The notes beneath the pieces were generated by a model. That model ran no database searches. It was given only the letters and a program-made list of their open reading frames with translations, and was not told where the DNA came from. Below, one piece after another: positions 4,532 to 31,780 of a stretch of DNA of 64,000 nt. Source of the stretch: an uncultured Ignavibacteria bacterium (lineage in GTDB: Bacteria; Zixibacteria; MSB-5A5; DSPP01; RBG-1); NCBI GenBank assembly GCA_964399055.1, contig CAYNPJ010000004.1:11158-75157 (forward strand). The letters run 5' to 3'. Numbering within the stretch: the first letter of the stretch is position 1; the number at the start of each line of letters is the position of its first letter. The position numbers were made by a program, and so were the translations under genes.

Positions 4532-5968
4532 CTAAGTCAGCTGATATTTAGCCATTCTATCTCTTAGAGTGTTCCTGCTCACCCCTAAAATCTTGGCCGA
4601 GCGCAGTTGATTGGACTCAGTCTGCTTCAAAACTTTTTCTATCAGCGCTTTTTCTAAGGCCGAGGAGATGTGGTCATAGATATGCCCGTCGGAATTGTCC
4701 ATAATCTTGCCGAAGACCGGTTCTAAAACTTCGGAAAAAAGCTTGTAGTAATCCTGCTGAATCTTCTGGAAGTCAAAGGGGATTCTCTCCCTGGTGTCGG
4801 AATACAGAGGGAAATGCTCCGGCGCCAAGATTTCTCCCTTGCACATCACCACTGCGGTGTGAATGTTGTTCTCTAATTCGCGCACGTTGCCGGGCCAGTG
4901 GTATCTGCCCAGCATCTCTTGAGCTTCCTTGGAGACGGACCTTATCTCTTTCCCCACCTGCGGGGCGTATTTTTTGAGGAAGTGTTTGGCTAAAACCGGT
5001 ATGTCGACTTTTCTTTCCCTCAAGGGAGGTAAATATATGGAGACCACTTTCAGACGGTAGAACAAATCTACCCTGAATTTGTTGTCTTTTATCAGCTCGA
5101 CTAAACTTTTATTAGTGGCAGCGATTACCCGGACATCCACCTTTATGGTCTCATTCCCCCCCACCCGCTCGAACTCCTGTTCTTGAAGGACGCGTAAGAC
5201 TTTGCTCTGGGTGACTAAGGACATGTCGGCGATTTCGTCCAAGAAAATAGTGCCATTGTGGCATTGTTCGAATTTTCCAATCTTGCGGGCATAGGCGCCG
5301 GTGAAGGCCCCTTTTTCATGGCCGAATAATTCTGATTCAAGTAAAGTCTCTGGCAGGGCCGCGCAGTTGACTGACAAAAAAGCCTTGTCGGCCCGGCGCG
5401 AATTGCGGAAAATGGCCCGGGCTACTAATTCTTTGCCAGTTCCGGATTCCCCCATGATTAATACTGAAGCGTCGGTTTTGGCAACCTGTCCAATTAATTT
5501 GGCTATCTCTACTATTTCCGGAGACTGGCCGATTATTTCATTTTCGCTAAACTCTCCGGGTTTGCCTCCGTTAGGGGCACCAGGCTTGCCCAGGTGTTTT
5601 TCCGAGAGGGCTTTGCGGACTTCACCAGCCACCTTTTCTAAGGTAAAAGGCTTAGTGATATAATCAAAAGCCCCCTCTTTCATAGCTTCGATGGCCGATT
5701 CAGTGGAGACGTAGCCGGTCAGGATAATGACCGGGACCTTGCCGTCAGTGGTCTTTATCTTTCTTAAGACTTCCAAGCCGGACATTCCCGGAAGATTCAA
5801 GTCTAAAAGAACTACGTCGGGCTGAAGTTCCGGTAGTTTGGCTAAGGCATCTTCCCCTTTTTCAAAGGAGAGCAGGCTGAATTCAGGAGGGGCTAAAAAC
5901 TGGGAAAGGGTCCCGCTTACTGCCGGGTCGTCATCAATCAGAAAGACCTTGGGAGTCTGCAGAGTCAT
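4532..5968 (-). CDS. sigma-54-dependent Fis-family response regulator (NtrC-like enhancer-binding protein), orphan with no adjacent kinase
   Basis: Receiver domain (VFLIDDDPAV...LLDLNLPGMSG); Pro/Gly-rich linker (GKPGAPNGGKPG); AAA+ motifs ESGTGKELVARAIF and GAFTGA; C-terminal HTH (KILGVSRNTLRDRMAKY). Confidence 0.9.
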   Translation of the reverse strand: MTLQTPKVFLIDDDPAVSGTLSQFLAPPEFSLLSFEKGEDALAKLPELQPDVVLLDLNLPGMSGLEVLRKIKTTDGKVPVIILTGYVSTESAIEAMKEGAFDYITKPFTLEKVAGEVRKALSEKHLGKPGAPNGGKPGEFSENEIIGQSPEIVEIAKLIGQVAKTDASVLIMGESGTGKELVARAIFRNSRRADKAFLSVNCAALPETLLESELFGHEKGAFTGAYARKIGKFEQCHNGTIFLDEIADMSLVTQSKVLRVLQEQEFERVGGNETIKVDVRVIAATNKSLVELIKDNKFRVDLFYRLKVVSIYLPPLRERKVDIPVLAKHFLKKYAPQVGKEIRSVSKEAQEMLGRYHWPGNVRELENNIHTAVVMCKGEILAPEHFPLYSDTRERIPFDFQKIQQDYYKLFSEVLEPVFGKIMDNSDGHIYDHISSALEKALIEKVLKQTESNQLRSAKILGVSRNTLRDRMAKYQLT

Positions 5969-6158: not shown

Positions 6159-6881
6159 TTACTTCTTACGTCTTAATCTGGCAAAACCGGCTGCACCTAA
6201 GAGGCCGCTGCCAAAGAGAAATAGAGTGGCCGGTTCAGGCACTTCAGGCGGAGTCTCACACAGGTCGGTGCCGTAAACAAATTTGACGTTCCTGATTTTG
6301 GCGCTGGGGTCAAAATAGGAAGAAATGCCGCTCAAGGTGAATACTACCTGATTCTGGATTAGAGCGTTACTTCCAGTAACCGCGGCATTCCCGGAAAATA
6401 AATTATCTGCGGCAGAGGTGATACCGTATTGCAATCCGTCAGGCGAATCAGGGCCTTGCAGATTAGGGCCCGGGAACCTGTCCCCTGACCCGAACAGGCC
6501 AAAGCCGGCAGAGCTTATGCCGTAGCGACCCAATCCATAGTTAGGAAAGCTGGAACTGTACCGAAAAGCCCACTCTCCGCCTACGTTGCCTCCATTAGAA
6601 GGGCCGTAGAATACAGATGAGCCTCCGCCCAGAGCGGCAGAGACCCTGCTTAGAGATGGATTGTACCTAATGTCGAAGAATACCGCGGTAAGCACTTCAT
6701 TGGGTGCCGTGACGTCAGCTGAGGAAGTGTTAGTCAGGGTGATTTGCAGATTTCCACTGACCACAGCAAATATAGCGCTGGCCGCCAGACTGCCACTGGA
6801 CCAGTTGTAAGTGAAAGGCACAGCCAAAGCCGTACCGCTGATTAATAGGGAAAGTAAAATCCCTGCTTTTATGAGCCTCAT
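6159..6881 (-). CDS. PEP-CTERM domain secreted protein (exosortase substrate)
   Basis: N-terminal signal peptide; C-terminal VPEPATLFLFGSGLLGAAGFARLRRKK (PEP motif, TM helix, basic tail); AGGAGG RBS. Confidence 0.9.
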   Translation of the reverse strand: MRLIKAGILLSLLISGTALAVPFTYNWSSGSLAASAIFAVVSGNLQITLTNTSSADVTAPNEVLTAVFFDIRYNPSLSRVSAALGGGSSVFYGPSNGGNVGGEWAFRYSSSFPNYGLGRYGISSAGFGLFGSGDRFPGPNLQGPDSPDGLQYGITSAADNLFSGNAAVTGSNALIQNQVVFTLSGISSYFDPSAKIRNVKFVYGTDLCETPPEVPEPATLFLFGSGLLGAAGFARLRRKK

Positions 6882-7719: not shown

Positions 7720-7737
7720 AGCAACCGTTATGCCAAT
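7720..7737 (-). promoter_or_regulatory. sigma-54 (RpoN) promoter, -24 TGGCAT / -12 TTGCT, driving the PEP-CTERM genes
   Basis: Reverse complement of 7721-7737 is TTGGCATAACGGTTGCT, matching TGGCAC-N5-TTGCW in spacing and the GG/GC dinucleotides; about 60 nt upstream of the ATG at 7658. Confidence 0.7.
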
Positions 7738-7769
7738 GGCCAGAACTAACCTTCAAAGAGCTAACCTAT

Positions 7770-7782
7770 TGTCATTCTGACA
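7770..7782. promoter_or_regulatory. inverted repeat TGTCA-N3-TGACA, candidate enhancer (UAS) for a sigma-54 activator
   Basis: Perfect IR about 35 bp upstream of the -24 element; a second IR CTGTC-N9-GACAG lies at 7888-7906. Confidence 0.35.
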
Positions 7783-14393: not shown

Positions 14394-16514
14394 ATGTCAG
14401 TTCTCTTTGCCGTAATCGCCAGCCTGACCTTAATCTTCGCCGTAGTAGTACTCCTCCGCAATCCTAAAGAGCTTTCCTTTTGGGCTTTTTTTCTCACCGG
14501 CCTATTCTGGGTCTCAATTTTAGCCGGCATTCTGTTTTCACTGCGCTGGGAGTTTCCTCTCTGGGGCTCTGCTCTTCTGGCTCTGGGGATTAGTTTCCTG
14601 CCCTCCCAGGGGACTTTTTTCAGTTTCTGCTTTGCCAGAGAAAATGTCCGGGAACTGTTAAAGCGCTGGCAGTGGTTTCTGGGGCTGACTTACGCCTTCA
14701 GTATAGTTTTTTTCATCTTAGCCCTGCAGGGGAAAGTTTACGCCTTAGGAGTCGGGGAAGTCGAAGGAAAACTGCTATTGGCCTATACCAATCCGGGACG
14801 GCTCTTTCTGGCTTTCCTCTTCTTGACTACTCTGGTCAGCTTAGTCAATTTGGAAAACACTTATCGTCTATCCAAGGGTAAAGAGCGCTCCCGCTTAAAA
14901 TTGCCTCTCACTCTGTCGGTCTCTGCTTACGCCTGGTTGATTTATTCTCTGACCAGTTCCTTCGTATTGGGCTATCTGCAATACTGGGTTTTGCAGGTGG
15001 GTTTTCTCTTAATCTTGGCGGCTCTGATTTCAACCGGCGTTTATCAGCTCAAACAGAGCACTCATCTGCCGGCAATCTATATGGGGCGGAGACTGGCTTA
15101 TTCCTCAGCCGCTTTTGTGCTGGTGGGACTCTACTTAGTCTTCATCGGCCTGGTGGCCAGTTTCATACCCAAACTGGGCGGGAATTTGCAGATTTTCATC
15201 TCGGTCTTAGCCGCCCTGATGGTCTTGATTGTACTGGTAATCTTGGCCTTCTGGGAGACCTGGAGAAAGAGGCTGGAGCATTTGCTGGAAAGGCTTCTCT
15301 ATCCGGGTAAATTCGATTTTCGCGAGGAGTGGAAGAGATTTTCTGAAAATATCTCGGCTCTGCTGGATTCGGGTGAAATTCAAAAAGAGACCGACAAGGT
15401 CATCCGGGAGAATTTGCGGGTCGACCAGTTGGCAGTATATTCCCGCACCAGCAGGAACAGCGATTTGAGAATCACGCATCACTCCTCAGGCAACTATGAC
15501 CAGCCGCCGGCCCTGCCGCCGGAGGACCCTTTCTGGGGCTGGCTTCTGCGCTATGGGGAGACAGTAGAGAAGAGGCAGATAGAAAGGCTGTTGGAAACTT
15601 ATGCCAGCGGCTCTCAGATTAAACATATTTTAGAGCAGACTAAAGGTGAGGTTATAACTCCCTTGATCGCCAACCGGGAGCTGGAAGGGATGATTATCCT
15701 CTCAGACAAGGAAGAGCAGGAGGCTTATACTAACGAAGATTTCGATCTGTTAAATGCCATCTCCGGACAGGCCGCTCTAGCCCTGTTGAATGCCCGGGTA
15801 GGGCAGGAACTGATTTTAAGCAAGGAGATGGAGTCCTTTCACAAATTTGCGGCCTTTGTGGTTCATGACCTGAAGAATTCCATCTCCATGCTCTCTATGC
15901 TTTTGGCCAATGCCCAGGGGAATCTGAATAACCCTCAGTTTCTGGCCAGCGCCTTGGAGACGGTGGACCAGGCAGTCAAAAAAATGAAGACCCTGGCAGA
16001 TAAACTCTCCTCCCCGCCGGAAGGCAGCACCTTAGTGTTAAGGCAAACGGATTTGAATCAGGTCTGGCAGATGGCGGCCCGGGATTTAAAATTGGAGCTG
16101 CTGCCGAACATAAAAGTGGAGTGGCAGTTAGGCGAGTTACCTCTGGTCAACTGCGACCAGGTTCAGTTGGAGAAGGTCTTTCAGAATCTGTTTTTGAATG
16201 CGGTGGAGGCTATGCCTAAGGGAGGTTCGATTAGAGTTACCACTCAATTCTTTGAGAATCAGAATCATCTTCCGGAAGTACGGATGAGCGTCCGGGATAA
16301 CGGAGTCGGCCTAAGCCCGGAATATCTGCGCACCCGTTTATTCCAGCCCTTTGCCTCCACCAAGAAGTCCGGCTTGGGCATAGGTCTGTTTCAGTCTAAG
16401 GAGATTGTTGAACAACACGGAGGCAGAATCTGGGTGGAGACCTGCGAGGGCAAAGGAACCGTTTTTTACATCACCCTGCCAGTGAAAGCAACAGCAGCAC
16501 CGGTAAACAAGTAG
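14394..16514 (+). CDS. prsK: PEP-CTERM system sensor histidine kinase (PrsK family)
   Basis: About 8 N-terminal TM helices, a GAF-like domain, HisKA (FAAFVVHDLKNSIS) and HATPase_c (GLGIGLFQSKEIVEQHGGRIWVE); immediately upstream of the sigma-54 regulator. Confidence 0.8.
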   Translation: MSVLFAVIASLTLIFAVVVLLRNPKELSFWAFFLTGLFWVSILAGILFSLRWEFPLWGSALLALGISFLPSQGTFFSFCFARENVRELLKRWQWFLGLTYAFSIVFFILALQGKVYALGVGEVEGKLLLAYTNPGRLFLAFLFLTTLVSLVNLENTYRLSKGKERSRLKLPLTLSVSAYAWLIYSLTSSFVLGYLQYWVLQVGFLLILAALISTGVYQLKQSTHLPAIYMGRRLAYSSAAFVLVGLYLVFIGLVASFIPKLGGNLQIFISVLAALMVLIVLVILAFWETWRKRLEHLLERLLYPGKFDFREEWKRFSENISALLDSGEIQKETDKVIRENLRVDQLAVYSRTSRNSDLRITHHSSGNYDQPPALPPEDPFWGWLLRYGETVEKRQIERLLETYASGSQIKHILEQTKGEVITPLIANRELEGMIILSDKEEQEAYTNEDFDLLNAISGQAALALLNARVGQELILSKEMESFHKFAAFVVHDLKNSISMLSMLLANAQGNLNNPQFLASALETVDQAVKKMKTLADKLSSPPEGSTLVLRQTDLNQVWQMAARDLKLELLPNIKVEWQLGELPLVNCDQVQLEKVFQNLFLNAVEAMPKGGSIRVTTQFFENQNHLPEVRMSVRDNGVGLSPEYLRTRLFQPFASTKKSGLGIGLFQSKEIVEQHGGRIWVETCEGKGTVFYITLPVKATAAPVNK

Positions 16515-16523
16515 TTTGAGAAA

Positions 16524-17885
16524 ATGGACCGGGATAAGATTCTCATTGTAGACGACGAAGAGGGAATCCGCACTCAACTTGCCTGGGCTCTGTCTGCGGA
16601 ATACCGAGTCTTGCAGGCTGACTCGGCAGCGCCAGCCTTGGATATAGTCCGGGCAGAGAACCCGAATCTAATCTTGCTGGATTTAGCCTTAAGCACCACT
16701 CAGGCCGAGCCGGATGGATTGGAACTCTTGGGAACTTTTCTGGAGAAAGACCCCTTTTTGAAAGTCATTATGATCACCGGCCATGATGAAAAGCCCAATG
16801 CTTTGGAGGCCATTAAAAAGGGGGCTTACGACTTTTACGCCAAACCCATCGACTTAGATGAAATTAAAATCATCATAAAGCGGGCTCTCTACATCCAGAA
16901 ATTGGAAAAAGAGAACCGGCAATTAGCTGAAGAGTTAGAGAGTAAACAAAAATTTGAGGAAATCATTGGCACCTCAGAGAAGATGGAGCAGATTTACCGG
17001 ACCGTTTCCAGGGTTGCCCCCACTGATGCCACAGTTCTGGTAGTGGGAGAATCCGGCACCGGCAAGGAACTGATAGCCAGAGCCATTCACAGCCTGTCAC
17101 CCCGTAGTTCCAAGCCTTTTGTCACCATCAACTGCGGGGCTATTCCGCCCAATCTTTTGGAATCCGAGCTCTTTGGTCACGAAAAGGGAGCCTTTACTGA
17201 CGCCCACATCCAGCGCAAGGGGAGGTTCGAAATGGCTGAAGGCGGGACAATTTTCTTAGATGAAATCGGCGAACTCTCTCTGCCCCTGCAGGTCAAGATT
17301 CTGAGGTTTTTGCAGGAAAAAGAGATTGAACGAGTGGGAGGCCGGGAGCCAATTTACGTGGATGCCAGGGTTCTGGCGGCGACAAACAAGGCGCTGCTGG
17401 AAGAGGTCAAGCTGAAAACCTTCAGAGAAGACCTTTATTACCGGCTCAGTGTAATTACCATTAATCTTCCCTCTTTAAAAGAGAGGGGTCAGGACATATT
17501 GCTTTTGGCCCACACCTTTTTGAGCCGTTTTTCGGCAGAATACAACAAAAGCAAGCTGACTTTTAGTCCTGCGGCCGAGAGGGCCCTTTTAGCCTATCCC
17601 TGGCCCGGCAACGTGCGCGAGCTGGAGAACAAAGTCAAACGGGCGGTAATTTTAAGCCTGGGAAATAAGATTACTCCCTATGATTTGGGACTGGAACAAG
17701 AGTCCGGAGGCAAGAGGCCAACCCTGCAGGAGCTGCGGGAGCAAGTAGAGAGTCAGTTCATTCAGGAAACGCTCCAGCGCCATCAGGGGAACGTCACCAA
17801 CGCTGCTAAAGAATTAGGGGTTAGCCGGACTACTCTTTATGATATCATGGAGAAGTACAAGATTAAAAGAGAGTCTTTGGATTAA
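16524..17885 (+). CDS. prsR: PEP-CTERM-box sigma-54-dependent response regulator (PrsR family)
   Basis: Receiver domain (ILIVDDEEGIR...LLDLAL); AAA+ motifs GESGTGKELIARAIH and GAFTDA; C-terminal HTH. Confidence 0.85.
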   Translation: MDRDKILIVDDEEGIRTQLAWALSAEYRVLQADSAAPALDIVRAENPNLILLDLALSTTQAEPDGLELLGTFLEKDPFLKVIMITGHDEKPNALEAIKKGAYDFYAKPIDLDEIKIIIKRALYIQKLEKENRQLAEELESKQKFEEIIGTSEKMEQIYRTVSRVAPTDATVLVVGESGTGKELIARAIHSLSPRSSKPFVTINCGAIPPNLLESELFGHEKGAFTDAHIQRKGRFEMAEGGTIFLDEIGELSLPLQVKILRFLQEKEIERVGGREPIYVDARVLAATNKALLEEVKLKTFREDLYYRLSVITINLPSLKERGQDILLLAHTFLSRFSAEYNKSKLTFSPAAERALLAYPWPGNVRELENKVKRAVILSLGNKITPYDLGLEQESGGKRPTLQELREQVESQFIQETLQRHQGNVTNAAKELGVSRTTLYDIMEKYKIKRESLD

Positions 17886-29848: not shown

Positions 29849-29877
29849 ATTTTAAACGTTAATCTTGCTTTCGTCAA
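29849..29877 (-). promoter_or_regulatory. sigma-70-like promoter TTGACG-N17-TAAAAT upstream of dnaK
   Basis: Reverse complement reads TTGACGAAAGCAAGATTAACGTTTAAAAT; GGAGGAG SD follows. Confidence 0.5.
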
Positions 29878-29959
29878 GTCTAATGTTGTTAAATTACACC
29901 CCAGACTGGCTGCCCCGACTGTCTGAAGGACAGCCGGAGCAGCGCCGGGCCTGAATTAC

Positions 29960-30409
29960 TTACTTTCCGGATATAGTAATCGGAATCTCTTTGGGCTTCA
30001 CTTCTTCAGCCTTGGGTAATTCCACCCGCAGGATTCCATTCTCGTAAGCCGCCTTAATCTTATCCGCCTTGACCATAGTAGGCAGACTGAAGGAGCGGGT
30101 GAAGAAGCCGTAGTTCCGCTCGAGGCGGTGATAATTAGTATCTTTATCCTCTTTCTCCTGGTGCTTCTCACCCCGGATAGTGAGGATGTTATCCTGGACC
30201 GAAACCTTGATGTCGTCTCTCTTCATTCCAGGGAGTTCTAACGAGACCACCACATCATCCTTAGTCTCGTAGATGTCAGTGGCCGGAAGCCACATCCCAC
30301 CATCTTCTATCTGGCGAGTTCCCCGGTCGAAGAAGCCTTCGAACATCCGGTTAACTTCATCCTGTAGATTGTACAGGTCTCTAAATGGTCTCCATCTTAC
30401 TAACGTCAT
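29960..30409 (-). CDS. Hsp20/alpha-crystallin family small heat-shock protein
   Basis: Alpha-crystallin domain (VSLELPGMKRDDIKVSVQDNILTIRGEK...GILRVELPK); AGGAGG RBS. Confidence 0.9.
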   Translation of the reverse strand: MTLVRWRPFRDLYNLQDEVNRMFEGFFDRGTRQIEDGGMWLPATDIYETKDDVVVSLELPGMKRDDIKVSVQDNILTIRGEKHQEKEDKDTNYHRLERNYGFFTRSFSLPTMVKADKIKAAYENGILRVELPKAEEVKPKEIPITISGK

Positions 30410-30450
30410 TTCATGTTCCTCCTTTCTGTCATTTTTGCACTACTATGAAA

Positions 30451-30465
30451 GCAAGTAGTATGCCA
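30451..30465 (-). promoter_or_regulatory. sigma-54 promoter TGGCAT-N5-TTGCT directly upstream of hsp20
   Basis: Reverse complement of 30451-30465 is TGGCATACTACTTGC(T); same -24/-12 hexamers as the PEP-CTERM promoter; contains the ACTACT/AGTAGT inverted repeat. Confidence 0.6.
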
Positions 30466-30667
30466 CAGAGTGTCTGGCCGGTGTGAAGACCTATAACTTA
30501 ATATGTATAAGTAACTTACGGCCAATTTATACCTTGAATGATATTTTGGAATAGTTTTTCATAACTGCCATTTTGACTTAATCAGTAGAATTTGACAGAA
30601 AAATAATGCCGAATTGAATGACTTACTGTATTTCTGGCAGAGGCAAGCAAAAGATCTGATATGAAGT

Positions 30668-31780
30668 TTATCTGAAGCAATATAAATACTTATCTTCTCC
30701 GCCTATATAATATTTCCCATCTCCAAAAGAGGCGGAGGAACTCAGGATACCTTCGGTCTGGAAATCAAAAACAACTTTCCCGGTCTCTTTATTTAAGGCA
30801 TAGAACTTCTTATCAAAAGACCCGAAACAGACCCATTTTCCCACCAAAATTGGAGAAGAGTGAATCAAGCTGCCAGCTTGAAATTTCCAGACCAATTGAC
30901 CGCTTTCTTTATCCAGACAGAAGAGATAACTGTCATTGGAGCCGAAGTAAACTCTGTTTGAGTCAAGAGCGGCTGAACTGTAAATGGCCCCTTCGGTCTT
31001 GAATCTCCAAATCTCCTTTCCTCCCACAGACAGAGCATAAAAAGTCCCATCCTGGGAGCCAAAGTAGACTTTATCTCTGTTCAAAACTGGGCTGGTATGA
31101 ATCCCGCCAGCGGTCTTAAACTTCCAGATTTCATCTCCCTTATCAAGACCGAGGCAATACAGGAAGCCATCCAGGCTGCCGAAGAATATCTTCTCTTCAG
31201 CGACTGCTGGAGCAGAATGGACAACGTCTCCGGTCTTAAAGCTCCACAGCTCTTTCCCACTGTTCTTATCCAGACAGAACAACTTGCCTTCTCCGGTTCC
31301 GGCTAAGAGCCGGTTGCCTGCCAACACCATGGGACCAGTGACTTCGCCTAATTTAGCCTCCCAGAGCATGACTTCCTGCACAAAATTGAAGGCATAGAGC
31401 TTCTTGTTCTTAGGAGTAGCAAAAAAAATAACATCTCCAGATAGGCAGGGCGTGGTCAATACCATTCCGGGCAGGGAAAGATGATTGATTTTAAGCCCGG
31501 TTAAAGCATTGACAAAATAGAGCTTCTTTTCGGCAGTGCCGAAAATGACGGTATTCCCTCTCAATAGAGGAGTCGTGGTAACTGCCCCGCCGGCCTTGAA
31601 TTTCCACAAAAGACCGCTGGGAGAAGGAACTTCTTTCTCTAAGCAGGCGGAATTAGTCAGATCGTTTCTGAAACTTGCCCAAAAAACCTGGCCGGTGCCT
31701 AAGTTCCGGGGATGAAACTGGAAGCCTCCTGCGCAGGAGAGGATTAAACCGACTAAGAATATGACCCCTTTTTTAATCAA
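30668..31780 (-). CDS. PQQ-like beta-propeller repeat protein (BamB-like fold), secreted
   Basis: Signal peptide; repeated '...G.LY.LD..TG...W.F.T' PQQ-type blades. Confidence 0.7.
   Translation of the reverse strand: MIKKGVIFLVGLILSCAGGFQFHPRNLGTGQVFWASFRNDLTNSACLEKEVPSPSGLLWKFKAGGAVTTTPLLRGNTVIFGTAEKKLYFVNALTGLKINHLSLPGMVLTTPCLSGDVIFFATPKNKKLYAFNFVQEVMLWEAKLGEVTGPMVLAGNRLLAGTGEGKLFCLDKNSGKELWSFKTGDVVHSAPAVAEEKIFFGSLDGFLYCLGLDKGDEIWKFKTAGGIHTSPVLNRDKVYFGSQDGTFYALSVGGKEIWRFKTEGAIYSSAALDSNRVYFGSNDSYLFCLDKESGQLVWKFQAGSLIHSSPILVGKWVCFGSFDKKFYALNKETGKVVFDFQTEGILSSSASFGDGKYYIGGEDKYLYCFR

Follow-up and report, generated by a model that had tools for sequence, protein, structure and literature searches.

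In the textbook account, heat-shock genes are regulated by sigma-32, HrcA/CIRCE, HspR and RNA thermometers. For lonD of Myxococcus xanthus, a sigma-54 promoter has reportedly been described by Ueki and Inouye. According to PMC3892784, in which their work is cited, the HsfB/HsfA two-component system of this species activates lonD, a heat-shock gene. In Chlorobaculum tepidum, dRNA-seq placed a primary transcription start with an RpoN motif in front of CT0644, a member of the HSP20 family, and this was the sole non-nif primary start with a significant RpoN motif in that study (bioRxiv 10.1101/172254). Predicted sigma-54 promoters were found enriched at GroEL, IbpA (COG0071), GroES, GrpE, DnaJ and DnaK in the Bacteroidota and Planctomycetota (Carrera-Reyna et al. 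2025, PMC12316311), in a text that mentions neither Zixibacteria nor Ignavibacteria. An earlier note on the locus studied here had also put forward ibpB of E. coli as a precedent. In genome-wide ChIP-seq this promoter gave only background sigma-54 signal, and the authors judged it to be probably misannotated (PMC4591121), so that ibpB is unfit as a further precedent. The paper on the sigma-54 regulome of D. vulgaris does not mention sHSP (small heat-shock protein) genes.

The present analysis concerns hsp20, the sHSP gene in a stretch of 64,000 nt of DNA from an uncultured Zixibacteria lineage (the whole stretch is called the window below). Taken together with 34 related loci, the window locus suggests that, in several uncultured phyla, the main sHSP is controlled by a sigma-54 promoter of the enhancer-dependent kind. 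Such a promoter would imply control by a kinase-responsive, ATP-dependent activator and not by direct temperature sensing.

The hsp20 transcription unit and its probable promoter element

Ahead of hsp20 lies a spacer of 258 nt, with a BamB-like beta-propeller gene (30668..31780) on its other side. The minus strand of the spacer reads ...CTGTGGCATACTACTTGCTTTCATAGTAGTGCAAAAATGACAGAAAGGAGGAACATGAAATG. The unit and its surroundings comprise the following features:

29960..30409, minus: hsp20 coding sequence for a small heat-shock protein of 149 aa, which has an alpha-crystallin domain (Pfam HSP20, E = 3.5e-27; NCBIfam sHSP families)
30416..30425, minus: ribosome-binding site AAAGGAGGAA, with GGAGG 8 nt ahead of the ATG; the block is kept in orthologs
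30437..30441, minus: predicted transcription start of hsp20, 11-13 nt 3' of the -12 GC, from standard sigma-54 geometry
30450..30465, minus: sigma-54 -24/-12 element TGGCAT-ACTAC-TTGCT (TGGCATACTACTTGCT), with the GG at 30464-63 and the GC at 30452-51
29892..29957, minus: GC-rich hairpin, very stable by fold energy, directly 3' of the hsp20 stop, without a U-tract
29849..29877, minus: sigma-70-like promoter TTGACG-N17-TAAAAT ahead of dnaK, part of the neighbouring unit and outside the sigma-54 module

With TGGCAT at 30465..30460 and TTGCT at 30454..30450 on the minus strand, TGGCATACTACTTGCT is a perfect match in the TGGCAC-N5-TTGCW test, its GG and GC being exactly 10 nt apart. The element is intergenic and on the hsp20 strand, and the C of the -12 GC lies 42 nt ahead of the hsp20 ATG (30409), in agreement with the minus-strand sequence, the GG-N10-GC spacing and the distance of about 40 nt given for it in the earlier note. 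Two exact matches to TGGCAY-N5-TTGCW are present in the 64-kb window, where shuffles predict 0.19, and the number of perfect sites expected by chance in the 258-nt spacer in the correct orientation is about 0.0004. The only other perfect sigma-54 promoter in the window is TGGCATAACGGTTGCT (7735..7720, minus), upstream of the PEP-CTERM-associated genes. The hexamers of the two promoters had been described as identical and indeed are (TGGCAT/TTGCT at both sites), which only shows that both match the sigma-54 consensus. An ACTACT-N9-AGTAGT inverted repeat, to which part of the hsp20 element had been assigned, is also present, yet no significance could be attached to it: at least one 6-bp inverted repeat is found in 63% of spacer shuffles and the orthologs lack this one, and we therefore treat it as a product of chance, having considered and rejected an operator or a hairpin. 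The repeat would not be part of the RNA either, because its right arm extends no further than the predicted start.

Given the predicted start, the 5' untranslated region of hsp20 would measure about 30 nt. An RNA thermometer (ROSE, fourU or similar) in this leader was rejected, since it has no Rfam match at E <= 1, is unstructured in the window (-3.5 kcal/mol, z = 0.38) and yields 0 pairs when 10 orthologous leaders are folded together with RNAalifold. The other classical heat-shock controls were rejected for hsp20 as well, as none of the corresponding elements was found in the spacer. CIRCE (TTAGCACTC-N9-GAGTGCTAA) gave 0 matches in the whole window with up to 3 mismatches allowed; HAIR (CTTGAGT-N7-ACTCAAG) gave 5 matches with three mismatches, against 3.1 expected, none of them near hsp20, dnaK or clpB; and the sigma-32 consensus of E. 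coli (CTTGAAA-N13-15-CCCCATNT) gave none upstream of these three genes with up to 4 mismatches. No sigma-70-like promoter was seen in the hsp20 spacer in an E. coli-style scan, the promoter types of the phylum being uncharacterised.

The hairpin that follows the hsp20 stop has a fold energy of -37.9 kcal/mol (z = -4.95), a stability equalled in 0 of 200 shuffles, and similar GC-rich hairpins are seen after hsp20 in orthologs. It is likely to be a terminator or a 3' stabiliser, and may represent a type of terminator that is missed by a standard scan. The promoter TTGACG-N17-TAAAAT that had been attributed to dnaK was recovered at 29877..29849, with no obvious conservation in orthologs. Because of the strong hairpin and the separate promoter-like site of dnaK, hsp20 looks like a monocistronic transcription unit of its own, and co-transcription of hsp20 and dnaK from the sigma-54 promoter is unlikely. 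Among the heat-shock genes of the window only hsp20 has the sigma-54 module; dnaK and clpB are without the motif.

Conservation across sHSP loci and the upstream palindromes

A search of the GTDB species representatives with the window sHSP yielded 80 loci (1.18 Mb), from a collection in which the window's own genome is absent. The closest sHSP loci are from Zixibacteria MAGs (up to 61% identity, some under other deposit names), followed by loci from Ignavibacteria, Calditrichota, KSB1, Poribacteria and others. Every GG-N10-GC site within 300 nt upstream of each sHSP copy was scored. In 27 loci a strong -24/-12 element begins 56-132 nt ahead of the ATG, and in 7 further loci a perfect element precedes a longer ORF that ends in an sHSP domain, so that 34 of the 80 loci, from several phyla, have a strong element directly upstream of an sHSP gene. 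Perfect sites are concentrated at these positions: 30 of the 33 found in the 1.18 Mb (both strands) lie directly upstream of sHSP genes, which corresponds to an enrichment of about 360-fold, and one more is a divergent promoter on the same enhancer. When the upstream region of the window was aligned with those of the 10 closest syntenic (hsp20-dnaK) loci of the Zixibacteria type, TGGCA and TTGC were invariant and in the same columns in all 11 regions, whereas the N5 spacer and the flanks vary.

The first 23 loci, which are of the Zixibacteria type, include 21 positive ones; the exceptions are L004, where only 32 nt of contig precede the first hsp20 copy, and L014. The latter (L014:3850-4000, from the Zixibacteria bin1014 chromosome CP070839.1) is a syntenic hsp20-dnaK locus that has retained the leader and a -12 TTGCG; the -24 element and the enhancer are seemingly lost, and the adjoining sequence is GC-rich and coding-like. 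L014 may represent a promoter loss that arose naturally. Another variation is found in five Poribacteria loci (L054, L069, L070, L073 and L078), where two tandem perfect or near-perfect -24/-12 elements, about 40-70 nt apart, lie 56-132 nt ahead of hsp20, the first gene of an sHSP cluster. The palindrome array described below is mostly absent within 250 nt in these loci.

The seven loci with a longer ORF (L005-L009, L017 and L023) belong to one Zixibacteria subclade, in which one ORF of about 300 aa is under the sigma-54 promoter. This ORF is an in-frame fusion of a Response_reg domain (Pfam, residues 7-115) and an HSP20 domain (residues 199-297), as for instance in L006:3542-4444, where the sigma-54 motif is at L006:3489. 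Palindromes of the GCCATTATGGC type are found upstream of the fusion ORFs. A phospho-regulated sHSP, if true, would be unusual.

Anchoring all positive loci on the -24 element brought out a 13-bp palindrome, TGYCA-N3-TGRCA, with an A/T-rich N3. TGACAG-type repeats had been reported from the hsp20 spacer before and are present there, TTTGACAG at the position given for it (30591-30598) and CTGCCATTTTGAC at 30565-30577, one base away from the coordinate given. These repeats are copies of the conserved palindrome. In the 6.75 kb made up by the 250-nt zones in front of the promoters, 23 perfect and 26 one-mismatch copies were counted, against 1 perfect and 18 one-mismatch copies in the remaining 188 kb of the same loci, which makes the perfect ones about 640-fold enriched upstream; palindromes are rare upstream of hsp20 genes that lack the sigma-54 element. 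Their positions are also fixed. In the clade nearest to the window their starts fall at -131, -111 and -91, counted from the T of TGGCA, and a second clade has them at -193, -173 and -143. Since these spacings are multiples of 10 bp, mostly 20 bp, the palindromes lie on one face of the helix. Activators of the NtrC family bind as dimers and assemble into rings, and such a layout of sites is classic for them. The phased array thus has the signature of an NtrC-type enhancer, i.e. of a predicted UAS. In the window, the array and its surroundings comprise the following features:

30566..30578, minus: predicted UAS palindrome AGTCAAAATGGCA, differing from TGYCA-N3-TGRCA at one base; start at -113 relative to the -24 T, aligned with array site 2
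30585..30597, minus: predicted UAS site TGTCAAATTCTAC, degenerate but with an intact left half-site; start at -132 relative to the -24 T, aligned with array site 1
30466..30565, minus: AT-rich spacer of 100 nt that separates the enhancer from the promoter (66% AT; the window as a whole has 52%)
30427..30439, minus: palindrome-like site TGCAAAAATGACA, with one mismatch, overlapping the predicted start; no clear conservation in orthologs

The full site at -113 and the half-site at -132 keep the 20-bp register of the orthologs. Close relatives of the window have three or four sites; with one full site, one half-site and the third site absent, the window array is a reduced form. The AT-rich segment is presumed to be the looping segment. 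An IHF site within it was considered and dropped, as the consensus WATCAANNNNTTR has no match between enhancer and promoter even with one mismatch and the segment is merely AT-rich. The site TGCAAAAATGACA is unlikely to have arisen by chance, about 0.006 such sites being expected in a 60-nt zone (arithmetic from the palindrome background).

Only two perfect palindromes occur in the window (TGTCAGAATGACA and TGCCATTGTGGCA), against 0.32 expected. The first, of the hsp20 type, is at 7782..7770 (minus), 47 nt upstream of the second sigma-54 promoter; the other, at 5251-5263, falls within the coding sequence of the gene for an enhancer-binding protein (EBP) at 4532..5968. The promoter at 7735..7720 stands at the head of a gene for a secreted protein, an XDD4 PEP-CTERM gene (6159..6881) and the same EBP gene. 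A related EBP may bind in the promoter region 7720-7782, or this region may share its regulation with hsp20.

Candidate activator, proposed mechanism and alternatives

Two genes for activators of the EBP type, both with sigma-54 interaction domains, are found in the window, one of them next to a kinase gene:

4532..5968: EBP_4532, of REC-AAA+(GAFTGA)-HTH_8 architecture, from a profile and motif scan
16524..17885: PrsR, an EBP (TIGR02915, 571 bits, above cutoff) adjoining PrsK, with a variant loop only and not GAFTGA
14394..16514: PrsK, a kinase (NCBIfam, above cutoff)

PrsK and PrsR (14394-17885) form a complete XrtA/PEP-CTERM sigma-54 two-component pair, both members scoring above their NCBIfam cutoffs. 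The gene rpoN itself is absent from the 64-kb window. As we know of no role for EBPs without sigma-54, the presence of these EBPs indicates that the window's genome almost certainly encodes it.

A better candidate for the activator of hsp20 came from the related loci. In L013 and L022, an EBP of 510 aa (REC-AAA+-HTH_8) is encoded directly upstream of, and on the same strand as, a tandem hsp20 driven by sigma-54. A protein search with the L013-type EBP gave a tight ortholog group (P0001-P0016, 64-95% identity, then a drop to about 50%) that shares the HTH motif GGNRKKAAKLLGIGERTLYRKIQAYGL. In four further contigs, orthologs with 69-80% identity are encoded upstream of hsp20-dnaK at a distance of 3-5 kb, which brings to six the related contigs in which a REC-AAA+-HTH_8 EBP is adjacent to or near hsp20. 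The gene order in the four contexts is FtsK, LolA, RimO-like, EBP, AMP-binding enzyme, epimerase, hsp20 (1-2 copies) and dnaK, the dnaK end being seen in L161, where the locus extends far enough. Within each of these four EBP-hsp20 loci (11-13 kb), the only strong sigma-54 site and nearly all palindromes are in front of hsp20. This confinement and the linkage make the L013-type EBP the best candidate for the hsp20 activator, with moderate confidence, because the evidence comes from one Zixibacteria subclade, in which the linkage could be a matter of inherited gene order with no functional meaning. When metagenomes were scanned with the L013 EBP, the conserved AAA+ core pattern dominated the result, and 80 generic EBPs (41-48% identity) were returned, none with hsp20 nearby. 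No ortholog of the L013-type EBP is found in the 64-kb window; the gene for the cognate activator is probably outside the 64 kb, and the activator in the window's genome is most likely an L013-type ortholog.

A sensor kinase gene is found in one of the Poribacteria loci. In L068:3490-3760, a perfect sigma-54 promoter that points away from hsp20 (L068:3683, minus) shares the hsp20 palindromes and drives a sensor kinase of 1154 aa (Reg_prop/Y_Y_Y-HisKA-HATPase). The arrangement suggests an autoregulated two-component circuit with feedback.

Taken together, the invariance of the element in the orthologs, its occurrence in 34 of the 80 loci, the phased palindromes, the EBPs of the window and the lack of competing elements make it very probable that hsp20 is expressed from a functional, enhancer-dependent sigma-54/EBP promoter, as the earlier note had proposed in preference to a sigma-70 promoter under CIRCE/HAIR control. 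Points that speak against this reading are the reduced array of the window, the absence of rpoN and of an L013-type ortholog from the 64 kb, the differing recognition helices of the two window EBPs, the limitation of the EBP-hsp20 linkage to one subclade and the apparent loss of the -24 element in L014. It is established that sigma-54 RNA polymerase forms a closed complex and cannot start transcription alone. At hsp20, it would bind TGGCAT-N5-TTGCT (30465..30450) as such a closed complex. An activator of the NtrC family (receiver, AAA+ with GAFTGA, Fis-type HTH) would bind the TGYCA-N3-TGRCA palindromes 100-135 nt upstream, and its phosphorylation by a sensor kinase would lead to oligomerisation. 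The activator would then loop over the AT-rich spacer and open the hsp20 promoter with ATP. Transcription would start near 30439 and give an unstructured leader of about 30 nt with a strong ribosome-binding site; the GC-rich hairpin past the stop would end the hsp20 unit, and dnaK would use its own promoter. The inducing signal would be whatever the partner kinase senses, which need not be heat itself. We infer the start site, the acting activator, the kinase, the signal and the use of the promoter.

The main alternative accepts the sigma-54 promoter and differs in the activator, which would be EBP_4532 or PrsR, with hsp20 co-regulated with the PEP-CTERM/exosortase surface-protein genes. We consider this unlikely. 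The perfect palindrome 47 nt upstream of the promoter at 7735..7720 speaks for it, as about 0.0013 perfect copies are expected in such a zone, and so does the fact that this promoter heads a string of genes ending in EBP_4532. However, the two window EBPs share only 38-40% identity with the hsp20-linked EBP and have different recognition helices (RNTLRDRMAK in EBP_4532 and RTTLYDIMEK in PrsR, against ERTLYRKIQA in the hsp20-linked EBP), so that the HTH comparison gave no support for either as the cognate activator and they were retained for this alternative only. Furthermore, none of the sites in the hsp20 loci is as close to its promoter as the -47 site, the spacing of the other repeats near the promoter at 7735..7720 is different (CTGTCGG-N4-CCTGACAG), and TGTC/GACA half-sites are common among regulators of the NtrC family.

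Less likely still is that hsp20 is expressed mainly from an unrecognised promoter of the sigma-70 family in the spacer, with sigma-54 as a minor, condition-specific input. Dual promoters are common for stress genes, and E. coli-style scans could miss such a promoter because the promoter consensus of the phylum is uncharacterised. Nevertheless, these scans gave no sigma-70-like or sigma-32-like match, and the 11 aligned regions conserve no block beyond the -24/-12 element, the palindromes and the ribosome-binding site.

That the palindromes serve a repressor or another non-EBP regulator as operators, instead of forming an enhancer, we regard as very improbable. The palindrome-like site at 30439..30427, which overlaps the predicted start, has a position typical of repressor sites, but the conserved sites are found at 90-190 nt upstream of the promoter, arrayed at intervals of 20 bp, and this is enhancer geometry; they occur only together with the -24/-12 element and are rare at hsp20 genes that are negative for it; and in L068 they lie between two divergent sigma-54 promoters. 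Finally, a functionless chance match of the -24/-12 motif, for which nothing speaks beyond the general possibility, is effectively refuted by the comparative data (0.0004 sites expected in the spacer, invariance in orthologs, the roughly 360-fold enrichment and the enhancer array alongside).

Comparison with known systems

The reading that we prefer, an enhancer-dependent sigma-54 promoter at hsp20, comes with a defined promoter, an enhancer motif of 13 bp whose phasing is fixed and a family of candidate activators, and is thus testable in vitro without cultivation. The palindrome motif also offers a handle to annotate sigma-54 regulons in MAGs of Zixibacteria and Poribacteria. It is possible, although we put it forward tentatively, that Zixibacteria, Poribacteria and a few neighbouring uncultured lineages share a dedicated sHSP circuit (kinase, REC-AAA+-HTH activator, TGYCA-N3-TGRCA and -24/-12 element) that replaces thermosensing by sigma-32, HrcA or HspR, and that the activity of the REC-fused sHSPs is controlled by the phosphorelay too. 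In the literature we found no description of the palindrome, of the candidate activator or of such control in Zixibacteria or Poribacteria.

Among the described cases, CT0644 of C. tepidum resembles hsp20 of the window in being an sHSP gene of the FCB group behind a sigma-54-type promoter. It belongs to another phylum, no enhancer motif or activator was reported for it, and the case for the window is one of sequence comparison. The survey of Bacteroidota and Planctomycetota is likewise a prediction across phyla in which sigma-54 replaces control of the sigma-32/HrcA type at chaperone genes, sHSP genes included; here, in contrast, hsp20 alone carries the motif, and an enhancer palindrome and a candidate activator are defined. 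E. coli ibpB is also an sHSP gene with a proposed -24/-12 promoter, but the window element is far better supported by conservation, and to our knowledge no enhancer or activator has been described for ibpB. HsfB/HsfA of M. xanthus, which is assigned to heat shock, combines a histidine kinase with an NtrC-type regulator and in this matches the REC-AAA+-HTH candidate and the L068 kinase; its target is the Lon protease and not an sHSP, it belongs to another phylum, and the likeness is one of system type only.

A sigma-54 promoter with an NtrC-type enhancer is in itself an ordinary device, and the sHSP target is uncommon and has already been predicted elsewhere. Most likely, hsp20 is switched on by a signalling protein through a switch of a known type that has not been described in this Zixibacteria lineage. 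The classical controls of sHSP genes (sigma-32, HrcA/CIRCE, HspR/HAIR and ROSE/fourU) act on the same class of target and their elements are absent here; in contrast to the thermolabile repressor, sigma factor or RNA on which they rely, the control proposed for hsp20 would be exerted by a phosphorelay-responsive, ATP-dependent activator.
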